Origin: Saccostrea cucullata
Lineage: Eukaryota
Assembly (NCBI RefSeq): GCF_032062105.1
Contig: NW_026931211.1
Span: 186,001-250,000 of the forward strand
Reading direction: 5' to 3'
DNA length: 64,000 nt
A program made the translations under genes and the position numbers. The notes under the pieces are model-generated. The model saw only the letters and a program-made list of their open reading frames with translations, was not told where the DNA came from and did no database searches. Positions 15,690 to 63,610 of this stretch are shown piece after piece (within the stretch, counting starts at the first letter, position 1; every line of letters starts with the position of its first letter).

Positions 15690-18600
15690 TATACAGTGTG
15701 TATGTCAGTAAAACTAAAAATCAGAAAATATGTACTTCAAATCTGTGTCCAGGCGCCTTAAACCCTTTCATATAATTTAATATCGAGTTTTTCTTTATTC
15801 AAATGCTATACATATTACATGTAGCTTCAAAACATACCAGTTTTCATATTTAGATCAGACAACAAATAGTCTCCTTCACTTCCCTCGTTCAGGCCTAGGA
15901 CCATTTTGTTGTTCCCAGTCTTTATCGTGTTCAATGAAACTCGAAATGAATGATCGCTGAAATCATCCTAGCTGGCAACATGATAACTTCTATACAGAAA
16001 CTCAGAATTCACTTGAAAATAAATCCGCACCTCATCAGATGTGGAACGGTGATTAAGCGTTACCGCTATATCGCTGACCCCTGAGGGTAGGTGGAGGAAG
16101 ACGGTGACGGCGCTTCTCCCGGGGTCAGAGAGAACCTTGTAGGGTTTTTCTTTTCTGAGCATGTTCGAGGTTGTCACGTGATGATACTCTGTACAGTTAT
16201 TTGTGTCTATCCAGGAAACTCTTCTCGGAACTGAGAAAAATAAAGATTAATTCATTGTTTAATTTAGAAGGTTCGTCGCTATTTAATTTATCTATAATCT
16301 ACCTTTGGAAAGGATTAATAAACCTTTAAAGCTTACTAGTTTTTAACCAAGGATATCTCTTCTTCGTTAGCAATCTTGAAGAGACTATTTGCGATAGAAT
16401 TCCATTAGTTTTCTTATTCTAAATCCCCTCTAGCTTGTAACAGAGCAAAAATTGTTATCTCTGTCATTGAAACATTAAAAAATCAGGAGCGGAGAAAACA
16501 TCAGAGGTGGGATCAGGTACCATGGAGGAGTGAGCATCCCCTGATGACCGGTCACATTCGTCGTGTGCCTTTTGCCATGATTGGGGAATGACGGGGGAAA
16601 TCTGTCGACAATTGTATATAAATAATTGCCTCACAATAAGTATAAAAAACGTCAGTCAGCATTTGGGTTAGGGTTAGAACATCTACATGCATCGTGTCTT
16701 TTTTCTCTCTCTCAAATAGACTGAATATTCATGATGCGAAAAGTATCTCAATTATTATTATTTCAAGAATTAGTCTTAATTTTATTAATTAGAATATCTT
16801 CATATCAAATATGCTTTAATCACTAGTACTTACCGCAAGATCCGTTGTAATCCATCAGCAATTGTAGTAAATATTAGAGATTCAATTAAAATTTATTTTT
16901 AAAAGTTCAAATTCTGTCACACTTTGTCAAAGAAGAAGCTAGGCACTGATATATGCGTTTTAATACTATTCTATGATAGTTGTCATTGAGAAAATAAAAA
17001 ATGAAAGTAACGAAACGAGGAGACAAATACTTGGAGGCGAAAAATGTGCAAACGATCGACGTCACAATTTCATTAGAACAGACAGACAGACAGATTAATC
17101 GCATAAGTAGTCTTTTTTCTGTATCTTGTAAAAATAAATTGATGTACATATTTTTAATGAAATCATGACTGTTCAAACAAAACTTCTAAAATTTGTGTCA
17201 CGATTCTGTCTTTGCCCTCCGATTTATAAACAAAAGACAGTTACAATATGGCATAGATCGTTGCTTTACAACCAATAAGACTATGAAAGCGCCGGATGAC
17301 CATCACAGCTCTCTGAATTTGTTGCTAAATCTGCCGTAATTTTTTGTGTTCCCCGTATATCATTTACTACATGTACCACTTTAAACAGGCTAAAATTCTG
17401 CAAATACTCTTCATGTTCTAACTACAATAACTTTGACGTCGAAGCAAGTCTGATCTATACATTTACTTGTATCTGATCATGAAGTAAATAGGGTTATTCC
17501 AAAGGTTACAATCTATTTTTGAAACACGATTGTACTAAATCGTCCACAAAATTTACTAGATTACACTCTAACATTGGTCCTTCACCTCTGATCTTTTGAC
17601 CTCAAAAATAGGATTTTACCTCCCTCCTTCCCAGGTTACCTGTCAAACCTGCAATGAGAGGTCAAATAACAGTGCACATATATGTTGAAGACGACACTGC
17701 ATTAATAGTGAATACTGGGGGAATGGAAGGGGGTCTTATGCTACATGTTCACCTGTATGGCATTTATGTCTTCCGATACAAAAGAGTTCTTCATACGAAC
17801 AATTTCTAAAACGAGGGACAGACTGCTGACAATGAAGTTGATGATACAAGGACATATCGTTTGAATAAAAATGTTACAATTATCATGGTCGCTTCACTGA
17901 CCTTGATTTGAAATGATACATGGAGGTGAATAATGACCGATATCTTTCACATTGTAAGACAAATATTTGGTGGAGATACACTCTTCTCTATTTTAATATT
18001 TTTTTTCTTCGATCATTTATTTCAACACATATTTGCACCATTGCATAATTTGAGGTAGGGGGGCTAGATTTTGGAGTCATTCTAAGAGAAACAGGAAACA
18101 TGGTAGAAGGAAGATTAAGACAAGGACGTTTTAAAGACTGAAAGGAAACATGCCAGAAATCTGTTTGAATTCCGATCGATCATTGTGGAAAACCAAGATT
18201 ATTAAGCATAGAAAAAGATGACGGAAGCAAAATATATTTGGTTTCTTTTTTTAAGAAAACGTTTATAAAAGATGTGAAATAGCAAAAATAGAAAATTACA
18301 ATATATTTACAAATTTTTAAAGTGTTTTGCTCTGTTTATCACCAAATTTTATTAGTGTTTTATCATATTCATTCCAAAAATATGAAAAAAGATTTAATGA
18401 TTTTCTTCGTTAAGGTAAGAATGAGATTCAGCATACATTGATTAAAGAATCTAAGGACAATTTGTATATTAGGTCGGGTAAATCCTTGAAAAGATTTGAT
18501 TTAAACGCTTAAATTTTTTCTTAAGTTTATCTATTGCTAAGTCGAATTTTTATTGATAGTTTTTATAGCAATTGTTAGCCATTATTTTCTCCATGAAAAG

Positions 18601-19100
18601 TCTAGGATTATTAAATGCAGCGACCGCTCAACCGATTTTGCATATCACAGTCTTATAATTTGGATAATAAGGAAAATGTAAATCATTTTTGTGTGATTAA
18701 ACAAAAATGTTTTACTTCCAATGGGAATAATAAGCATAAAATAGAGTAAAGCACATTTTCGTAAAAAACAAAGTAATTAAGCCATGCATTTGTCAAACTC
18801 TTTTTGAAACTAAGGATTCTAATTGTATGGCACCAATTTGGTAGGACATATTGAATTTAATTTAATGATAATAATGATTCAGTTTCATTTCTACCCTGAA
18901 ATGTTTAGAAAAAAATTGATAAAAATGCAGAGGTCTGTGTATGATCCAGCATAATATCGATCGAGTAAATATCACATTACAGCGTTAATATCACACTGGT
19001 TTGCTAATATCTTCTGGGCAATGTTATGTTCTGGACCGAGTTATCTTTCGTCCTTTGTAATAGAGTTCTTAACACCGGTCAAGCAAGGCACCGTCAGCCG

Positions 19101-19414: not shown

Positions 19415-19506
19415 CGTCTGCCGAAACAACGTAAAGTGAAAGAGAAACCAAAGCTTTTGGCTAGGTTTGGAGAGAAAGAAGACGTTTACACAAATCTGTA
19501 TACATG

Positions 19507-19774
19507 TATAGTGTTTCTCTCCAACATGACTGTGATGGCGGATACAGAGAAACAACTATGGTAAATATTCCGCACTTTACTTAGCTAGTGGTCGCCAATA
19601 ATATACACAATATCACAATGACTTACAGAGATTAGATAAACACGTCTTGTCGGGACTGCATCCAACACAAGAGAGAGAGAGAGAGAGTGTGTTACGTCAC
19701 AGTCCGCATCATTGCAGGACACGTGATCGGAGGCTACAGGGGAATTCGTCCCCAGCTCCTCCAGGACCACTACA
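19507..19774 (-). repeat. 3' LTR (268 bp)
   Basis: TGTAGT...ACTATA on the minus strand. Matches 27699-27962 except one substitution and 4 nt of microsatellite. Confidence 0.95.
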
Positions 19775-19788
19775 CTCCTCCCCATTTT
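19775..19788 (-). promoter_or_regulatory. Polypurine tract
   Basis: aaatgggggaggag immediately before the 3' LTR on the minus strand. Confidence 0.8.
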
Positions 19789-20189
19789 GTAACAGGGCGT
19801 AGCCCGTAAGATATATACAATTGGACAAACTATAATATACAAATAATAAAAAGTTAATACCTAGCATGGCCTATCTTACATACATGCACATGCATTCACA
19901 CAATAATAAATCTTTAAACATTAATGTCTCTAAAATAATAAAAATCACAGATTTAACAGTTCATAGCACAGTCACTCATCCTCCGCGTCATCTCGGAACA
20001 CCACGAGGTCCCTCGCTGTTACCATCCGACTCCTGTCGTCTACCACGTGGTCCAACGTTGATAAATCTGGAGATAGGCTCTGCTACGACGTCTACAGTGC
20101 GGCCAATAAATCAGGATTACCTGTTCCTGATTTAGGTAAGTACAGGTAAGTGCTCCGGGCTGCACGTCCCGGCTATAGTACAAATTAAT

Positions 20190-22045
20190 CTACAAGGACC
20201 CCCTCAACTGAGGCCCAAAAAACACCCTAAAATTTCTAAAAACCAAACCCGCTAGCAGGGCGACATCCTGTCCCCTCGCTGCGGCAACTCGACGGTACAT
20301 TTTTCCGATGTGCCTAGGGCCCATCGGAGCTTCAACTCCACAAGGGAAGTCGGGACTATCCGACTCGACTAACAATCTATCCGTAGGAATAGTCCTGACT
20401 CCTGACAACTGGATCGCGGACATCTCCGCGAACTGACCCCCTACTCCGAAGAATACGGGTCTGCCGGAATCTACCTAGAGCTTCACCTGCCCCGGTCCAC
20501 CAGTAAAGCCATGTATAAAGATAGGAACCAAAATAGGTACGAACATCAAGTCCCGATAGGTAAGACAATCTTGCGTAGGGACGCGGCCCAAAGGGTCGTA
20601 CGCAGTTTCCTTAATGACCAAAATCATCCCAGTACTGAATGTCGCCTGGCGGAAGAATTCCGCCAAGACAAACCTCTGACACCTAGGAGTGGCGGGACCG
20701 GAATAGTCCAGTCCAATCTCCCCCACTACGTAGTTCTTACTCCTACAAACTCCTACTACTCGGGCTACATCCGCCTGCAACACAAAGTCCGCAGACCCAG
20801 GGGAAATCCCCTGAGCCACAACCCACTGCGGATTGCCTAAATCCGAGAGAGGCACCTCCCGGAAACCGTATGTCACACAACCTCTAACCAGCTCCACTTT
20901 CAAGTCAACGGGGCGCTGATCTTCACTTAATAACTCCCCTACAGACTGTCCCCTACACCCCGGAATCTTCCTCGGGAACCACAAACTATCAATTACCTGA
21001 ATCAAAGGGACCTGAGGGTCCGCTGACCAGGAAGGCCCCGGCGCTCCTCTGCTGGCTCCTTCCTCCGGCGGAACTACAACAACAACCGGGGGTTGCGGAC
21101 TCTCCGCTACTACGGTCGTTGTCACCAAGCTTTCCCTAGAGCTTGGGAGACTGTCCGGCACAAGGACCAATCCGCTGACCATCGCCTCCGGAAGCAGTTC
21201 ATCTTCCCACGACTCTACCACATTGGAGCGCGACCGCTCTAAACAACTCCATGCCCCCATAAAATCAGCTCCATTGAGTAAAATAGCAATAACCCTGGGA
21301 TGTATAAGCATCGCCACGTGGGGCAATTCCCCCATCCGCACCCTGCGAATTTCCGGTTCTAAGGGTGGCACTATCCCCAAGTGCGCGGAGAACCTGGCCA
21401 TAAGATCTCTCACACCTGCCGAGAATCCCCACTCGACTTTCCCCATCCGCCTAACTACCCAGAGGCGGAGCTGACCCAGCAACTCGAAATCGCTGGCGCC
21501 CTCAGGGGATACCCTGAGCAGGCGGGCTAACTCAAGAAGGAACTCAAGGAACACTTTGCGATCGTCAATCCCCTAGATGGTATTCCCAAATTTGAGCTAA
21601 CATCGGGGTTGCCCCCGAGAACATCATACCGCATGCGTTAACCGCACATCTGCGGGTGCCCCTAGACCTAACACAACGCACCTGCGGGTAACAACCTTAA
21701 CCTAGCATAGTTAGACAACCCCGCACGTCCGACTCCCAGGGGTCGGGGTGCGCTGGCTTCCTGCCACCTCGCAGGCTCCTGCTCTCTAAGACTCAGCTCC
21801 ACAATCTCCACCTAGGAAGGCTCGAGCCGAACAGGCTCTCTTCGCCCAGCTGGCCGCAATGGAGGCGGCGCATCCGGAATCCCCGTGATGATCCCTCAGC
21901 CTCTTGGCGCTCCAAGGTTCCCTTCCGGCATTTCGGAATCACTCGCCGGTGCGGCCACTTCCGACTCCGCGTCGCTGCGTTCCCGCATCTCTTCCTCGGC
22001 GGAGCTTCCGCCCTCGAAGATAAACTCATCCATTTCCCCAGACAT
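20190..22045 (-). pseudogene. Extra ORF (env position) with C-terminal TatD-like TIM-barrel domain (about 20190-21000); disrupted
   Basis: VIDSLWF..GISP..VVGEIGLDY..IHGFTG..RLLVESDSP..RNFRVFF match the TatD motif order. One in-frame TAG at 20475 joins ORFs 20475-21554 and 20190-20423. The acidic N-terminal part is frameshifted. Confidence 0.8.
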
Positions 22046-22190
22046 CAGCTACGAACCCACAAAGACAGGTAAAATTATCAAACCTATGTCTAAACCTTCC
22101 ACTTCATGCACAACTCTACCTTAACTAGATGTAAACCCAACCGAGACTTGCACATGCTCCGGCATCATTGCGGGAACCTAACTGCTCTAC

Positions 22191-22604
22191 CTAGTCAGTG
22201 TCGACTCCGACGGGACTGCATTCGGGGTAGATATATTGAGGTACAGATTTAGCATAATCCTCACTAATACCTACACACCCAGGATGAAACCAGTCCCGGC
22301 AGTTGTCGCACTGCACCTTGGGATTAGACTGTAAGCAGACACAATATTTTCTGGTTTTAGCTCCCCTAGTGACTCTAGGTCTTTTGGGCGACTTGGGCTG
22401 TACGGACTGATCTAGTCTTTCCGTAACCCGCTTACGAGTACCCATATACGGACCTACTGACTCCGCTGGCTTGGGGCTAACTTTTGAGTGACCCCCACTC
22501 CCCGGGCTCTCAGGACTTAATCCTGAGTCCGCGGTCCCCAGCGGTACAACCACGCCATGTATAGGAGAACTCTCCCCACCTCGGGCTACTGGCTGTCCGG
22601 GCAA
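22191..22604 (-). pseudogene. Integrase C-terminal extension ending in a PHD finger
   Basis: YCVC..VQCDNCRDWFHPGCVG..YIYPEC is a C4HC3 pattern with the 7th ligand C>Y. In frame with integrase across one stop at 22638. Confidence 0.8.
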
Positions 22605-22637
22605 CTTATTCTTATAGTTAATTAACCATTTGGGGAG

Positions 22638-25600
22638 TTACCTGGACTCGCACCTTTTAAGCTTGTCATGGTGCATAACCTTGACCTTGCACCGAGATTT
22701 GACAACAAATATTGTGACCGATTTGGCTTCGACTATGATCCCAGGACCTCTCCAGACTGACTCTACCTTTTTTCCCGCATTGCGGCGCCAGTAAACCAAA
22801 TCTCTGACCTTGAACTTGCTGGTACGGACCTTAATGTCATGCGACCTTTTCACTGCGCGCCCCAGCATTAACCGATTTGGTGTATACCCTGTCTGGCGAT
22901 TGACCGCGGACCGCAATCCTCCAGCCAATGGGCCTAGGTACTTATCCCATGACTTGGGCTGGCCATCGACGTAGCAACGAACCGCGTCCATTAGAGTCAG
23001 GTTATAGCGCTCTACCTGGCCATTCCCTGACGGACGGTAGGGTGTGGTCCTGGCTTTGTGTATCCCTAACATGGCGCAAATCTTACAGAACAGCTCACTT
23101 TCGAAGTTACGGCCCTGATCTGTAAAGATTTCGTAGGGATAGCCAAATCGAGAAAAGAAGTCATTGATAGCGGAATGGGCTGTAACCTCCGCTGTTTGAG
23201 ACGGAAGCGGAATACACTCTACCCACTTGGTAAAGTTATCTACCATCATAAGAATGTATTCGTTTCCGCTATCAGTTCGGGGAAGCGGCCCGAGAAAGTC
23301 CAAATGTACCCTCTCCATCGGGCTTCCGGCTTGATAGCTCTTGAGCTTGGATCTGTTCGGCAACGAACCTCGCTTGTTCCTCGCACATACATCGCAAGTC
23401 TTGACATATAGCTTAATGTCCTTTGTAATGCGCCACCAGTAGAACTGTTGCTTAAGGCCCTCTTTAGTTCTTTGGATTCCCTGGTGGCCGGAGGACGGTA
23501 TGTCGTGACATAAGTGCATGATCTCGGATCGGAGACTCCGCGGCACTAGGAGCCGACGGGGCGCATCCGAGTCATCGGGTTCTCACCAAACAACTCCCGA
23601 CTCGTCGAGATAAAAACAGTCTCGTTCCAGAAGGTAGCACTTCTCTTCCGGACTGCTAACGGTTGGTAAAGTCCCAGACTCTAAGTACTGTCTTAGGTAT
23701 ACTATAGCTTAGTTGTTTTTCTGTTTCTGAGCTAAATCTGCGGAAATGTATGAAGATAGCGAAATTCCCGCAGTGTCACCTTTTAACTGACAGACTTGAG
23801 GACTAACCGTCTCAATCTTGGGATCTAAACTCGACACCCCACTGACATTAATCTGAAAACTGGGAAGTGCAGACGCACTTACAGTCAAAGGAGTATCTTC
23901 CCAAGGACTAGAAACAATGGCCTGACGGAGAGTGGGATCTAACGAATCACAGTTACCCCCTCAGCGGACGGACTTTCCGCTGGCACAGGCGTTTCGTCAA
24001 AGAGTTGGGACAAAGGAATTTCATCGTCTATTTCGGTGTTAAACTCATGCCAGCGTTCGTGGGCTCGGCGGCAATAACGGCATCCGCCGCAGGGCAGGTC
24101 TTCGACCCTAATTCTCGTCGAGTACCCCTGGCATGAATCGGGTATGTCCCGGGACAGAACATCGGCATTCACATGCTTCTTTCCCGGGCGGTGTACGATC
24201 CGCATATTGTACTGGCTCAGTTCTTCGAGCCATCGAGCGATTTGGTTCTGCGGATGCTTGAAGTTCATTAGTCAGACCAGGCTATGGTGATCGGTCCTGA
24301 CCGTGAACTCGCGACCCAGCAGGTAATGGCGGAATTGTCTGGTAAACTTAATAACCGCCAATAGCTCTTTTCGAGTAGTACAATACTGCGCTGTTCTGCG
24401 GATAGCACAGCACTCCCATACCCTATTGTTCTTTCTTTCCCACCCTGGACTTGGCTTAATTCCCTGCCTACGGCATAATCCGAGGCGTCAGTATCCAGGA
24501 TGAAATGACCTGTACTGTTCTGTATCGCTAGAACTGGAGGATTGGTCATTAACTGAATGAGTTCCTCGAAAGCATTATGCTGCTCTTCACCCCACCGGAA
24601 ACCGCCTTTTCCAGTTACTGCATACAGCGGAGCCGCAATTCTGGAGAAGTGAGGGATGAAACTACGGTGATAATTGGCGAAGCCAAGAAAACGCTCTACG
24701 CCCTTAACATCACGCGGAACTGGCCAGTCACGTACTGACTCAATGTACTGATCCTCCATCTAAACTCCGTGCTCGCTCACGGTTCTACCAAGGAACTCGA
24801 CCTTAGTCTTAAACAGCTGGCATTTCCGAGGCTTGAATTTAAGGCCATATGCTCCGAATCGCTCAAACACTTGTCGTAGGTTATCAAGGTGAGCTTGCGC
24901 CGAAGATCCTAGGACTAGGATATCGTCTAAGAAAGCTAAGGCGATCTTCCAGGTAAGTCTATGTAATACCAAATTTACGGCCCTAGCGAAGGTCGCGGGG
25001 GCATTACACAGACCAAACCCCATTCTAGTAAATTCGAATAAGCCGTACTTTGTTATAAAAGGCAGTCTTTTTCCAGTCTTCCGGGGCTATTTTAACCTGC
25101 CAATAAGCCGCGTTATCGTCAAGCTTGGAGAACCAGCGGTTTCCCGCTAGCGTGTCCATGCACTCCTCGATGAGTGGCAGAGGGTACGTGTCCTTGACTG
25201 TCACATTATTCAGGGCTCTATAATCCACGCACCAACGGAAGTTGCCATCCTTCTTCCGGACCAGAAATGGGGCGGACGCCCAGTCTGAAGAAGACGGCTG
25301 GATAACTCCGGCTTTTAACATCTTATCGAGATGACCCTCTTCCTCCCCTTGAAAAACAGTGGGGGAGCGTCGCATCCGCTGCTTGATGGGAGACGCGTTA
25401 CCGGTGTCTATTCGGTGTTCGATCTCGGAAAAACTTCCGAGATTAAGGTCATCTGTAGCAAAGACGTCGGCAAATTTTTTGACTAGCTCCGCTGCCCGAG
25501 ATCTGACTTCCACAGGCGCGGTCTTATTTAACTGCTCTAAGAGTGGGGCGATATGGTCATAGTTCTTATCCCCCTCAAAGGTTACACGACGCACTGTGGG

Positions 25601-26224
25601 CTTAGTATCATTGACTAGATCGGCGGGGACGGCTTTCCCCACCTTAGTGCCAGTCTTAACAATATGACTTCGATCTGTCAAGTTCAAGATGCACAGCTTG
25701 GCTCTGTTTCCTGCAGCGTTGTATGTTCCCGAGGTTACTATACCAGGCGGAAATATGCTAGCTGGTTCTAGCATAAACTCTGGCATATCGGAAATAAGGG
25801 TACTCTCGATAATTTGGGCAGTGTGCGGGGGAATCCGCACTCTGCGGACTGAAACCGCATCGAGTATTGGTACTGACTCATCAACACTCAAAGCAAATGT
25901 AGTGTAGGGAAAGTGCCCTGGCTCTTGGCACTCGTGACATATAATAGGCTTCGGTGCGCGAGGAAGTCCCCTGTTCGGTGACGGATCCCTCGAGGACCCT
26001 CGCTCGGGACTTGATCCTCGGGTGCTGTCCTCCGAGTCGCTGGAGTAGTATTTGCTATACGAGTCCCGATCCGGCGACTCGGAACGGTCCCTGCTGGCAC
26101 GGCGATCAGAACGGTCCCTGCTGGCACGATTAGAGGAACGGTCCCTGCTGACACGATTAGGACGGTCCCTGTTGGCACGATCAAAGGAACGGTCCCTTGA
26201 CTCCGAGCGCCCTCTGCGTGCCAC
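22638..26224 (-). pseudogene. Gypsy gag end and pol (RT, RNase H, integrase), multiply disrupted
   Basis: RT: WASAP..RWCVDYRALN..YPLP, MGFGLCNAPATF, FLDDILV. RNase H: FILDTDASD, RPGKKHVNADVLSR. Integrase: HHCC, HLDFLGP, FTDQGRNF, GNGQVER. Confidence 0.93.
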
Positions 26225-27470
26225 GTAAAGATCTTGACACTCAGAATCTTATCTGGCCCGATAATAACCCAAATTTGGCGACTGACTCCTGTCATTTTGA
26301 CGGTCTCTAGATAGGGATCTTACCGCTCTCGGCCAGCGGCCTAAAGCTCTGCGACTAAGCTGATAAGTTTTCTCTTAATCGCTTCTTCTAGAGTCCCCGG
26401 GGGATTATTAATTAACTGCTGCCCCGCCTCGCCGTCATTACACCCCAGAGCAAAACGAACGACTATTTGCTCTTGGAAAACTTCCGGCGAAATTCCGCTA
26501 CCGAACGCTTTCTGGGCAGTGTCCATTACGCGGTCCCCCAATTGCTCTATAGCTTCGTCCGCTCGCTGGCAGATAGAATTAAATTCCAGCTGTGAGGGAA
26601 GTTTTACCGAATCTCTCCTTCATCCGGAGAACGACTTCTCGGAAACTTAACAGCGCGCCTCGTCGCCTGAAGATATCAAAGTACTTAAGAGCTGCCCCCT
26701 CTAGTGTGAGACTTAGGGCAAACAGAGAGTCGGGATCACTCCACTGATGATATTCGGCTATAGTGGAGAACTTGGCATAAAACGGACCCCATTCAACATC
26801 CCCGTTATATATCACCCCTTTGACCTCGGCCGGAATATTTTTACTGACACAGCTACGGGTACCAGCGGGAAGTAAACTTGGCAGTTGACTCTGGTTCGCG
26901 GTGGTCATTAGCGAATGACCCTGTACTGCATTAGGCAAACCCCTATGACTAGGCACGAGCGACGGACTACCACCTAATGTAACTGACTCCCCAACCAACC
27001 TACCATAGTGGCCAGCGCCCTGACCACTCGAGTTAGCAACACTAGGATGCGCGGACGCTAAGGGCACGGTCGCGGAAGTACCCACTCGGGTGCACCATGC
27101 AACCTGACCCGGGACCGGTGGGTCCGTGCTGGGAAGCACTGGGTAATCGGCCCCCAGACGCAAATGAACCCAAAGTAATAGGACTCGGAAGTCCCGAGGC
27201 TAAACTGTCATTGCCAAATGATGATAGGGAATGACCTTGAGACATTTTTACACTGTGTCCCCCCACAGAAACAGGTACAGACTCTCCGCTATGTGCGGAC
27301 ACTACTGGGGTCACTGCAGGAGTGCGCCAGGGACCCAAGGACTCCCCTGGCTACTAGTCACAACTGACTGACTGACTTTAATATCCTGCATGGGCGGGGG
27401 TGACTGAGGCTGACTAGCCTTCATTAATCCAGCCAATATTTGCGTAATATTACTTAATTGGCCCCCCATA
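26225..27470 (-). pseudogene. Gypsy gag, disrupted (start approximate)
   Basis: YNGDVEWGPFYAKF..W..LSLTLEGAALKYF..MKERFG, then RVMDTAQKAF..VRFALG..PGTLEEAI (retrotransposon gag pattern). Confidence 0.75.
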
Positions 27471-27680
27471 TTTGTCTCCAAAGACCCAACCTGTTTATTA
27501 AAACCACATAGAAATATCTCGCGGCTAATCCGCTAAGAACATATAACAATGTACAAAATACGAAAGAAACTTTAACCTTATATAATTACATTACATAATA
27601 AAAAGGTACTAAAAATCCAAGATGGAGACGGCACTAGCTAACATGTGCTAGGCCGGCACCCCGCTGCCCAGACAAATAAC

Positions 27681-27697
27681 CCTGGGTCGCAGCGTCA
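27681..27697 (-). promoter_or_regulatory. Primer-binding-site-like sequence
   Basis: tgacgctgcgacccagg lies one nt after the 5' LTR and resembles a TGG-started PBS. The tRNA identity was not established. Confidence 0.5.
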
Positions 27698-27698
27698 A

Positions 27699-40799: not shown

Positions 40800-41471
40800 C
40801 AGCAATTGTAGTAAATGTTAGAGATTCAATTAAAATTAATTTTTAAAAGTTTAAATTCTGTCACCCTTTGTCAAAGAAGAAGCTAGGCACTGATTTATGC
40901 GTTTTAAAAACTTTTCTATGATAGTTGTCATTGAGGAAATAAAAAATGGAAGTGACGAAACGAAGAGACAAATACTTGGAGTCGAAAAATGTGCAAACGA
41001 TCGACGTTACAATTTCATTAGAACATACAGACAAACAGACAGACAGACAGACAGATTAATCGCATCAGTAGTCTTTTTCTATATCTTGTAAAAATAAATT
41101 GATGTATTTTTAATGAAATCATGACTGTTCCAACAAAACTTCTAATATTTGTGTCACGATTTTGTCTGCCCTCCGATTTATAGAGCCGGAATCGATAGTC
41201 ATCTCTGAGTTTTTAAAAAGATAAGACAATAAGTAAAACTCCTTAAATTGTTAATATTTTTTATTTTAGCCTTTAAGCATTATAAATCGTCCAAATAGGA
41301 AAAACAAGACCATTACAATATGGCATAGATCGTTGCATTACAACCAATAAGACTATGAAAGCGGGTGGCCATCACAGTTCTCTGAATTTGTTGCTACATC
41401 TACCGTAATTTTTTATGTTCCCCGTATTTCATTTACTACATGTACCACTTTAAACAGGCTAAAATTCAGTA

Positions 41472-41878
41472 AATATATTATTATAACAGTAACTTGATCC
41501 GAAGGGTCGTATCACGTCGAGTTGACAGGCGCGGATCATCAGATCTAACGAGACGCGAAGCGTCGAGTTTGATCTGAAGATCCGCGCCTGTCAACGAATG
41601 ATAAATTTATTATATACCCCCTTATAACTAGCTAAATATAGCAGAATAAAACTTTAGAGATCAATTGTTTAATATTTATCCATAAAACAAAGCATAATAA
41701 CAAGGGACTTTTTCACGCGCAAGAAAAATAACGTCATGTTTTTGCGTACTACGTCATCAGTTTCAGAGAGTGGTGATTCAGAAAACCACAGTGTGGTGAT
41801 TCGGAAAATCGGAAAATCGGATCAAACTCTGTAAAATTAACAGTAACAAAAACAAGGAAATTGATGGGTATATAATAA
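41472..41878. mobile_element. Hairpin-bearing non-autonomous element
   Basis: Palindrome at 41521-41595 centred on acgcGAAgcgt. Occupies the position of about 17405-17848 in copy A. Confidence 0.5.
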
Positions 41879-43748
41879 AAGGATATATCGTTTGAATAAA
41901 AAAGGAACGATTATCATGTTCGCCTCACTGACCTTGATTTGAAATGATACATGGAGGTGAATAATGACCGATATCTTTCACATTGTAAGACAAATATTTG
42001 GTGGGGATACATTCTTCTCTATTTTAATTTTTTTTTTCCGAACATTTATTTCAACACATGTTTGCACCATTTTGAGGTAGGGGGAGCTCGATTTTTTAGT
42101 CATTCTAAGAGAAACAGGGAAATGTGGTAGAAGGAAGATTAAGAGAAGGATGTTTTAAAAACAGAAAGGAAACCTGCAAGATATCTGGTTGAATTCCGAT
42201 CGATCGTGGTGAAAACCAAGATTATTAAGCATAGAAAAAGATTACGGAAGCAAAATATATTTGGTTTCTTTTTTTGTTAGAAAACGTTTATAAAAGAAGT
42301 GAAATAACAAAAATAGAAAAATACAAAATATTTACAAAACAAGTGTTTTGCTCTGTATATCACCAAATTTTACAAGTGTTTTGTCATATTCATTCCAAAA
42401 ATATTAAAAAAAATTGATGATTTTCTTCGTTCAGGTAAGAATGAGATACAGCATACATTGATTAAAGAGTCTATATTTGGACAATTTGTATATTAAGGTA
42501 AATCCTTGAAAAGACTTATTTTGAACGCTTTGATTTTTTGTTAAAGCAATATGAGCTGCAAGTTTGACATGAGAAAATTTTGTTGAAAATTTGTAATTAA
42601 CTGATAAATAGAACATTTATAAACTTCTGTCATTCATATTTGCGTTGGACGAACTTTTTATAAGCTTTAATTGAAGCAAAATTACATGATTGTCGTCCTG
42701 TAGCTCATATTTTATCTATTGCTAAGTCGACAAATATTTATGGACATTTTTCATAATAAATGTTAGCCATAATTGTTTTCTCCATGAATAGTGAAAGGAT
42801 TATTTCATGCAGTGACCGCTCAACCGATTTTGCTCCCATCACAGTCCCATCATTTGGAGAATAAGAAAATAAAAACCATAAATCAACAGGACGATTTTAA
42901 TGCTTTTATTCTGTGTGATTAAACAAAAATGTTTTACTTCCAATGGAAATATATAACACAAAATATATTAAATATAACACAATTAATATTAGGTCGCTTT
43001 GGTACAATAAACGAAAAGGACAAAACAAAAGAAAAATTCAAAATCCGCGATATGTGCTGTTTCAGGCACTTGTAGGATGTTAGGAAAAGCATAAAATAGA
43101 GTAAAGCACATTTTTGTAAACATCAAAGGTCAAGCCATTCGTCAAACTCTTTTCGAAACTAAGGATCCTGAATGTATGGCACCAATTTGGTAGGACATAT
43201 TGAGTTGAATTTAATGATATTAATGATTCAGTTTCATTTCTACCCTGAAATGTTTAGAAAACAATGATAAAAATGCAGAGGTCTGTGTCTGATCCAGCAT
43301 AATATCGAGTACATATCACATTACAGGGTTAATATCACACTGGTTTGCTGTTATAATATCTTCCGGCTGATACCGAGTTACTGGACTAAGTATCTTTCGT
43401 CCTTTGAAATCGAGTTATCGTTCTTTACGCCGGTCAAGCAAGGCACCGTCAGCCGACACAAAGTTAAGTGAAAGAGAAACCAAAGTTTTTGGCTTTGTTT
43501 GGAGAGAAAGAAGACGCTTACACAAATTTGTATACATGTATATAACAATTTAAAAAAAAAACAAATTAATATATGTTCGAATATATGTTTATAATCGTAA
43601 TAAATGAAAAATAATACCGAATTTCAATTCACAAGACACGTTGCTCTGAAGTGCAAACGCGGCTCAGCAATGCTCATTGCATCGTATAAATGGCAGCATC
43701 ATTGATTGTTGTGTAGTAGTAAATGCTCACGTGACGGATGAAATAGTT

Positions 43749-63152: not shown

Positions 63153-63379
63153 CTAAAATGTGATAATGTCAAATCTGAACCACAGATATAGTAGATTTTT
63201 TTTTTACTTACCTCTCATTGTACTCCTATACAATTATAGCGTTCATTTCCATGAAAAGTTTAAGCTACTGGGTTACAGAGACTTAGTCTAAAAATTTCCT
63301 GCATTCTTTATCAAGAAAATAATTAAACATTTACAAAACTACAACGGCATATTCGTGCCATTTTAACAATGTAGAATTT

Positions 63380-63610
63380 TTTTTTTAAATCGTTTGTACG
63401 ATTTAATAAATCGTTTGTACAATTTAACAAATCGTTTGTACAATTTAATAAATCGTTTGTACAATTTGTTTATTAAATCGTTTGTACAAATTATTAAATC
63501 GTTTATACGATTTTTTAAAATAGTTTGTACGATTTTTAAAAATCGTTTGAACAATTTAAGAAACCGTTAGTACGATTTTTAAAAATAGTTTGTACGATTT
63601 AGGAAAATGT
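63380..63610. repeat. Tandem ~19-22-bp repeat (taaatcgtttgtacaatt), probably an arm of a foldback MITE
   Basis: About 10 visible degenerate copies in a PIF1 intron. Confidence 0.7.

Follow-up and report, generated by a model that had tools for sequence, protein, structure and literature searches.

A TatD-fold accessory gene in Ty3/Gypsy retrotransposons of the oyster Saccostrea cucullata

In a 64,000-nucleotide stretch of the Saccostrea cucullata genome (hereafter the window), a gene resembling the TatD nucleases lies between the integrase and the 3' long terminal repeat (LTR) of a retrotransposon, in the env position. This raises the question whether the gene is a long-term component of the element lineage, and whether it encodes an intact metal-dependent nuclease that serves cDNA processing, insertion-gap repair or evasion of host surveillance, as the original prediction suggested. 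The window contains one Gypsy LTR element, on the minus strand at 19507..27962, which is complete from LTR to LTR yet broken. Its features are as follows.

27963..27966, minus strand: target site duplication CATG, 4 bp, read from the flank letters; the other copy is at 19503-19506
27699..27962, minus strand: 5' LTR, 264 bp, TGTAGT...ACTATA
27685..27698, minus strand: stretch directly after the 5' LTR that, from its position, would be the primer-binding site
25910..27529, minus strand: gag region, broken by 12 stops (aligned by tblastn to residues 155-756 of an open sibling)
22191..25903, minus strand: pol, frameshifted, with reverse transcriptase (RT), RNase H, integrase and a C-terminal PHD finger (Pfam RVT_1, RT_RNaseH, Integrase_H2C2, rve, PHD)
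20190..22045, minus strand: ORF2, ~625 codons, not open here; encodes a disordered acidic N-terminus, the C2H2/helical module, an acidic linker and the TatD barrel
21251..21657, minus strand: C2H2 zinc finger and helical module, ~137 aa; approximate bounds, mapped from the open sibling
20217..21002, minus strand: TatD-fold domain; this copy retains one of the five histidines, together with both Glu and the Asp
19775..19788, minus strand: polypurine tract, directly abutting the 3' LTR
19507..19774, minus strand: 3' LTR, 268 bp

The two LTRs are identical at 264 of 269 columns, differing by one mismatch and a 4-nt gap inside a GA run. Paired LTRs, a target site duplication and a polypurine tract are all present in the window copy, as expected of a Ty3/Gypsy LTR retrotransposon. 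The domain order gag-protease-RT-RNase H-integrase is complete in the open sibling; the window copy lacks the protease, with no match there to sibling residues 757-934. The gag of the open sibling shows a weak match to Retrotrans_gag (Pfam). The primer-binding-site-like stretch starts with TGG in the open sibling and is altered in the window copy, and a search of the whole window found no tRNA gene. In two copies with an open ORF2, gag-pol is also open and forms one ORF of about 2200 codons (2228); the TatD-bearing gene is therefore ORF2. The surrounding sequence includes host segmental duplications of 87-95% identity that flank the element, ~19 and 23-24 kb apart (13300-18900, 32400-33200 and 37800-43300), within which short ORFs resemble one another. 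A degenerate non-LTR RT remnant, RTE-like by eye, lies on the minus strand at 10919-12695. Tandem arrays at 33788-35124, 35630-37070 and 63375-63604 are built from a ~147-bp unit repeated nine times, 23-bp units inverted around a 1-kb core, and 21-22-bp units.

ORF2 lies where it was predicted, between integrase/PHD and the polypurine tract/3' LTR. It is intronless and runs on the same, minus, strand from an ATG at 22045 to a stop at 20190, with the PHD end of pol at 22191. In this copy, however, it is not open: the frame shifts twice, near 21677 and near 21575, and meets three in-frame stops. Like pol it is GC-rich, as had been noted (GC 0.56 for ORF2, 0.50 for pol and 0.33 for the flanks). 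The Pfam profile TatD_DNase matches two pieces of the window (E 7.6e-08 and 0.011) and the open sibling (E 7.5e-15), which supports the TatD assignment. The motif series had been described as complete. GEIGLDY (20723-20703), HGFTG (20513-20499), RLLVESDSP (20378-20352) and NFRVFF (20234-20217) are indeed present, but most of the histidines of the series are lost. Similarly, the acidic N-terminus and helical middle are both there, but the middle is a distinct C2H2 and helical domain that the prediction did not name.

A DNA search of the same genome gave at least 44 matches to the window ORF2 family (40 of 51 candidates scored), and ORF2 is open, at 626-628 codons, in 4 of the 30 loci read. Another 39 loci were fetched at 10 kb. 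Of these, 7 are fragments and 32 are preceded, on the same strand, by integrase and/or PHD; in 13, both LTRs are visible, with pairs 91-100% identical. In six disjoint pairs of copies, which share ancestry and are not fully independent, dN/dS is 0.02-0.17 for TatD (upper bootstrap bounds 0.08-0.35), 0.07-0.14 for the module and 0.03-0.18 for integrase; none of the six TatD values is near 1, and comparison of 13 copies with one reference agrees. These values indicate that ORF2 is kept under purifying selection across the family. Because dN/dS of TatD is as low as that of the module, with many synonymous changes, selection acts on the protein. Synonymous divergence is higher in ORF2 than in integrase in four of the six pairs, the more distant ones (up to 1.0 versus 0.22), a pattern compatible with 3' modules having been exchanged on a shared pol. 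Together with rejection of a grouping with host TATDN2 (below), the Gypsy context and low dN/dS bear out the view of ORF2 as a long-term component of the lineage. Our preferred reading, to which we give an even chance, is that ORF2 is an old Gypsy accessory gene, selected yet dispensable in cis, whose module likely binds element nucleic acid and carries an interchangeable hydrolase; in the window family the TatD domain would be a weak exonuclease or a non-cutting end-binder.

To assign the ligands of the TatD site, we used motifs and alignment to E. coli TatD and YcfH, and mapped His149, His174 and His77 of TATDN1 likewise. The HxH pair is lost in all 19 copies that cover the site, where DxHxH reads DCLWF or DSLWF. 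The phosphate-binding His is lost in 31 of 31 copies and the first His of the second metal site in 36 of 36; in the window, GISP stands where GxHP is expected and Val replaces the HxR histidine. The other second-site His, that of HGFTG, is Arg in 28 of 39 copies and His in 9, the window copy among them; a reading of this His as private to the window copy was thus wrong. The acidic ligands are kept: all 39 copies have the Asp, 37 of 39 the outer (second) Glu, and 34 of 35 the bridging Glu. The window family has neither the class II HxH nor the class I (G/A)xN motif. HxH is present in sister families, and the nearest of these (L126, RT 90% identical) keeps every TatD ligand. Among homologues with both acidic motifs, 128-130 of 134 keep each histidine motif; a Saccostrea echinata homologue (P0001) has a partly degenerate site.

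In the sections of PMC10085689 that we consulted, TATDN1 binds two metals through Glu112, Asp222, His149 and His174. Of the mutants described there, Glu112Ala is the sole one that cuts both activities, His77Ala lowers AP endonuclease activity tenfold, and single changes of His149 or His174 leave the exonuclease intact. Set against these mutants, the histidine losses make it likely that the window family has lost AP endonuclease activity. A complete loss of cutting is possible but not certain: the bridging Glu, essential in TATDN1 according to the same sections, is kept, so the domain may still cut. Judged by its residues, the domain is probably a weak or pseudo-nuclease, and the intact metal-dependent nuclease of the original prediction finds no support in the window family. 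One of the main alternatives is that the TatD domain is still a working nuclease, with a site rebuilt around one metal and the Arg, that trims cDNA ends or helps gap repair. The conserved acidic residues, strong purifying selection, a barrel predicted to be intact and the exonuclease activity of the single-His TATDN1 mutants favor this alternative. We nevertheless consider it unlikely, since the loss extends to four or five histidines at once, among them the one that TATDN1 needs for AP endonuclease activity (PMC10085689, same sections), and since no core replication step depends on ORF2 in cis.

The latter point comes from a search with the integrase-PHD end, in which 19 of 40 scored matches were absent from the TatD matches. 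We fetched 18 such loci, and 16 are entirely without ORF2. This ORF2-less sister subfamily has RT 95-99% identical, an open gag-pol of 2162 codons, LTR pairs of up to 99.6% identity and a different 3' region. Other copies, with LTRs 96-100% identical, share microhomology deletions inside ORF2; these recurrent deletions take out the module and spare the 3' TatD part. We conclude from the ORF2-less sisters and the deleted copies with young LTRs that ORF2 is dispensable in cis. A needed role for it in cDNA processing or gap repair is unsupported, as siblings without the ORF include some with near-identical LTRs. Help in trans from ORF2 for these siblings is possible. The deletions were also considered as reverse-transcribed splice products, an idea we rejected as the junctions lie in short microhomologies and not at GT..AG. 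In the ORF2-less sisters L142 (7190-7420) and L151, a GC-rich stretch of ~250 bp is kept between PHD and the AT-rich 3' region; a GC-rich stretch similar in size follows ORF2 in the window, at about 19975-20110.

TatD genes of this kind extend beyond the window family. Pfam TatD has 151 matches in the genome. We fetched 40 other TatD loci. Same-strand Gypsy domains lie upstream in 35 of them, many inside LTR pairs; their RT shares 56-86% identity with that of the window family. Five loci have no such domains upstream (L118, L129, L130, L133, L134). L130 (G000:C18394:57785-61093) is an intronless ORF of 1104 codons with two module copies and a degenerate TatD, with no Gypsy domains in ~10 kb upstream, and is possibly a domesticated element gene. 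L118, L133 and L134 (for example L118:6655-9024) are intact module-TatD ORFs of ~790 codons with no same-strand pol nearby, which we read as non-autonomous elements or domesticated copies. In two families the TatD ORF is in frame with pol, either with no stop after integrase (L114:5770-9006) or with a single stop codon between the two (L119-L121; L119:6804-6808), suggesting a possible pol-TatD fusion or readthrough. In a quick RT tree (66 rows, 173 columns), ten TatD families, the window family and nine others, form two groups within one branch (support 93). The nine other Gypsy families carry the same ORF with intact TatD sites, and nine RTs outside the branch have no module.

At 40 further RT loci, three of which end at contig ends, there is no whole TatD and one TatD fragment. 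At 14 of these the module follows integrase, and what comes after the module varies. In four, the next domain is a metallo-beta-lactamase (MBL) (Pfam E 5.2e-15), with human MBLAC1 closest (E 2.8e-30); MBLAC1 is an RNA endonuclease. One locus, L287, has an SGNH-like domain, its motifs recognized by eye, for which there is no Pfam match and the best match is the ORF1-encoded protein 4c1b (E 0.0095). Six have the module and no enzyme, and wherever the frame is open it continues from pol; in the remaining three the module forms a separate or broken ORF. LTR pairs of 98-99.5% identity enclose one MBL locus, the SGNH locus (each of these two within a 98.8% pair) and three enzyme-less cases; no LTR pair was found for three MBL loci. 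Because SGNH enzymes are not nucleases, L287 weakens the case for one common nucleic-acid role of the cargo. Separately, in more distant Gypsy elements integrase is followed by a short acidic C2H2-finger ORF whose ATG is preceded by an acceptor-like AG (L289:3078-3761, L290:4159-4812, L268:5789-6454); this finger is perhaps related to that of the module.

The exchange of cargo could also mean that ORF2 serves in counter-defence: by hiding or destroying cytosolic cDNA, hybrids or small RNAs, it would keep them from setting off innate sensing or piRNA silencing. Under such a scheme the histidine-less form would be a decoy, and cargo swaps and active-site loss would reflect an arms race. Repeated replacement of the cargo on the RT tree, the accessory position, dispensability in cis and the greater divergence of ORF2 alleles than of integrase (by dS, in four of six pairs) are consistent with this idea. 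A part in silencing is also brought up in the consulted sections of the rotifer element study (PMC5408684), which mention that piRNA biology involves inactive DEDD nucleases. On the other side, pairwise dN/dS is below 0.2 throughout, with no sign of positive selection. Counter-defence overlaps with the preferred reading, an accessory gene with an interchangeable hydrolase, and is inseparable from it here; as an explanation of its own we consider it improbable.

The part that all cargoes share is the module. AlphaFold predicts, for an open copy, a disordered acidic region (residues 1-135), the zinc-finger/helical region (about 136-270), a disordered linker and a TIM barrel (357-623) with pLDDT mostly 80-97. 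The top structural matches of this model are TatD proteins, the first being 1xwy (E 2.1e-10). The C, C, H and H of the finger are invariant in 14 aligned ORFs, and the module of a related family has a confident predicted fold (pLDDT 92). The module corresponds to no Pfam family. Against the PDB there was no Foldseek match at E<=0.001, which is not proof of a new fold; VIA-align gave a best Z of 3.6 among 48,161 chains, and top scores in the ESM Atlas were 0.86, with low recognition. A module profile finds 731 clusters (50% identity) at E<=0.001. Among the best 150 of these library matches, 86 also have TatD, 64, many of them fragments, show no TatD, and none has MBL or SGNH cargo. In several large proteins (P0123, P0125, P0155, P0159, P0136, P0245), as many as five copies of the module stand amid ankyrin repeats or follow a B-box-like finger, and host proteins may carry the module as well.

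These results raise the question whether the module alone matters, with the C-terminal enzymes as passengers or stabilizing folds and TatD kept for structure or for overlapping RNA signals. The module does stand without an enzyme in at least eight loci, six of them in frame with pol, and the library matches with no TatD point the same way. Such an explanation is very improbable in light of the TatD dN/dS, which is as low as that of the module over many synonymous changes, the full catalytic set in most homologues, and the recurrent deletions, which drop the module and spare the 3' part of TatD.

The origin of the TatD domain was addressed with a TatD tree of 80 rows, which includes no full-length TATDN1 sequence; of TATDN1, exons were seen in the genome. 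It recovers the same two big groups as the RT tree, with support 97 and 99. On protein sequences alone, the larger group joins the window family with proteins of Pinctada, Ostrea, Crassostrea, Argopecten, Pecten, Mytilus, Dreissena, Ruditapes, Mactra, Haliotis, Elysia, Diadema and Ptychodera. Host TATDN2 proteins group apart, in a clade with support 97 that includes no element rows, and lack the module. The oyster has separate, intron-containing TATDN2-like and TATDN1-like host loci; its TATDN3-like genes are intronless, with a cluster of genes and fragments at G000:C14024:321533-332807 (L250, L251). For constraint tests we used a subset of 54 rows, dropping 26 (unnamed proteins, near-duplicates and some bacterial rows). 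Nesting of the window family with oyster TATDN2 was rejected in this subset (p-AU 1.4e-53), where the element TatDs fall on one side with support 60 and join TATDN2 with support 87; the data neither establish nor exclude these two groupings. An old capture from a TATDN2-like gene would be the simplest reading. A one-off neutral capture of a host TATDN gene is next to impossible: the element TatDs are as a group nearest to host TATDN2, making an old host origin plausible, but 32 of 39 and 35 of 40 loci are in Gypsy context, the topology test and dN/dS of 0.02-0.17 oppose it, and the host TATDN2 genes are intron-containing, at separate loci and without the module. The absence of ORF2 from many integrase siblings, which could have signaled such a capture, is real.

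A metagenome scan gave matches to the TatD part alone, 25-33% identical, which served as bacterial-type outgroups. Four proteins labelled as TatD of a Candidatus Thiodiazotropha MAG (P0057, P0080, P0084, P0089) group with the element proteins; their source is probably clam DNA that was binned with the symbiont. One predicted protein (P0252) joins a gag-type protease to TatD.

In simple scans, ORF2 shows no signal peptide, no furin site (R-x-K/R-R) and no free transmembrane stretch; its most hydrophobic window lies inside the barrel, and the N-terminus is acidic. The best reading is that it is a non-envelope accessory gene with nothing env-like. Most of 18 ORFs examined have an AG and a pyrimidine-rich run 0-18 nt before the first ATG, with several start calls uncertain. 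Two poly(A) read sets of 12.8 M and 11.3 M records yielded 127 and 110 reads, which left the interior of ORF2 nearly empty; at this very low depth, no splice joint into ORF2 was seen in either set. A 3119-nt contig from a run presumed to be RNA covers the end of pol, ORF2 and the 3' LTR at depth 17, with a 34-nt gap. In line with the preferred reading of ORF2 as an accessory gene, we propose the following model. The acceptor-like AG suggests that ORF2 would be made from an env-style subgenomic, probably spliced, RNA. The module would bind element RNA or cDNA, and intact TatD versions would be class II (HxH) 3'-5' exonucleases/AP endonucleases. The cargo may trim or clear single-stranded DNA, RNA or hybrid by-products of reverse transcription, which could raise yield or lower host detection. 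The window-family barrel may have turned into a weak exonuclease or end-binding pseudo-nuclease, and ORF2 protein could act in trans for ORF-less siblings.

The closest known systems, in the sections of PMC5408684 consulted, are the Juno and Vesta LTR elements of bdelloid rotifers (Rodriguez, Kenefick, Arkhipova 2017), whose ORF3 encodes a DEDDy exonuclease or a GDSL/SGNH esterase. In both groups of elements, the env position is taken by an enzymatic ORF that is no envelope gene, that individual families have gained or lost, and whose cargo includes nuclease and SGNH domains. In contrast to Juno and Vesta, the oyster cargo is TatD (an amidohydrolase TIM barrel) or MBLAC1-like, and all of it sits on one shared C2H2/helical module; purifying selection is strong in oyster ORF2, whereas the rotifer genes are described there as showing no significant departure from neutrality. 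SGNH esterases also occur in ORF1 of LINEs (CR1/RTEX/ZfL2, in the same source), and the ORF1-encoded protein of PDB 4c1b resembles the domain of L287 (E 0.0095); the domain is part of ORF1 in non-LTR elements and follows the module in the oyster LTR element. Class II TatD proteins (E. coli YcfH and YjjV, human TATDN2 and TATDN3, as classified in the consulted sections of PMC10085689) have the fold of ORF2. Intact element families keep HxH, Glu, His, His and Asp as they do, with YcfH the best sequence match. Unlike them, oyster ORF2 is element-borne, intronless and fused to the module, and lies outside the host TATDN2 and TATDN3 groups. Errantiviruses and env-carrying Ty3/gypsy elements, as far as covered in the consulted part of PMC13524379, likewise have an extra ORF between pol and the 3' LTR, and ORF2 shares the acceptor-like AG before its ATG; it differs in encoding an enzyme fold, not a fusogen, and in lacking the signal peptide, furin site and transmembrane anchor.

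The word TatD does not occur in the consulted main text of the rotifer paper (PMC5408684) or of the errantivirus survey (PMC13524379), nor in the main text of an annelid survey (PMC8220671) and a mollusc LTR survey (PMC6238403). A giant squid paper lists TATDN2 among non-Hox genes, in a legend. We found no description of a TatD- or MBLAC1-bearing Gypsy element in the literature, judged by listings and the openings of abstracts, a scope outside which Repbase, GyDB, subscription journals and supplements fall. The novel points are a module common to all cargoes, the existence of alternative cargoes, a histidine-less branch that is under selection, and sisters without the ORF.

A broader proposal, which we advance tentatively and with more doubt than confidence, is that an ancient zinc-finger/helical domain serves retroelements as a dedicated carrier, docking interchangeable host-derived hydrolases (TatD, MBLAC1-like, SGNH) onto the RNA or cDNA of Gypsy elements in molluscs, echinoderms and hemichordates. 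It would act in counter-defence against silencing or nucleic-acid sensing, with the oyster pseudo-nuclease as a decoy branch, and hundreds of annotated 'TatD-like host genes' in marine invertebrates would be element genes. Among non-envelope third genes of LTR retrotransposons, the rotifer cases are, in the consulted account, few and low-copy. Our results extend the known cargo of LTR elements by TatD and MBLAC1-like domains and define a folded domain without a PDB or Pfam match. One genome offers ten TatD families, intact and histidine-less versions, alternative enzymes and ORF-less sisters with the same pol, which are natural controls for biochemistry. Annotations as TatD, YabD-like or TATDN2 in molluscs and echinoderms probably denote transposon genes in many cases, and counting these would inflate claims of gene-family expansion.
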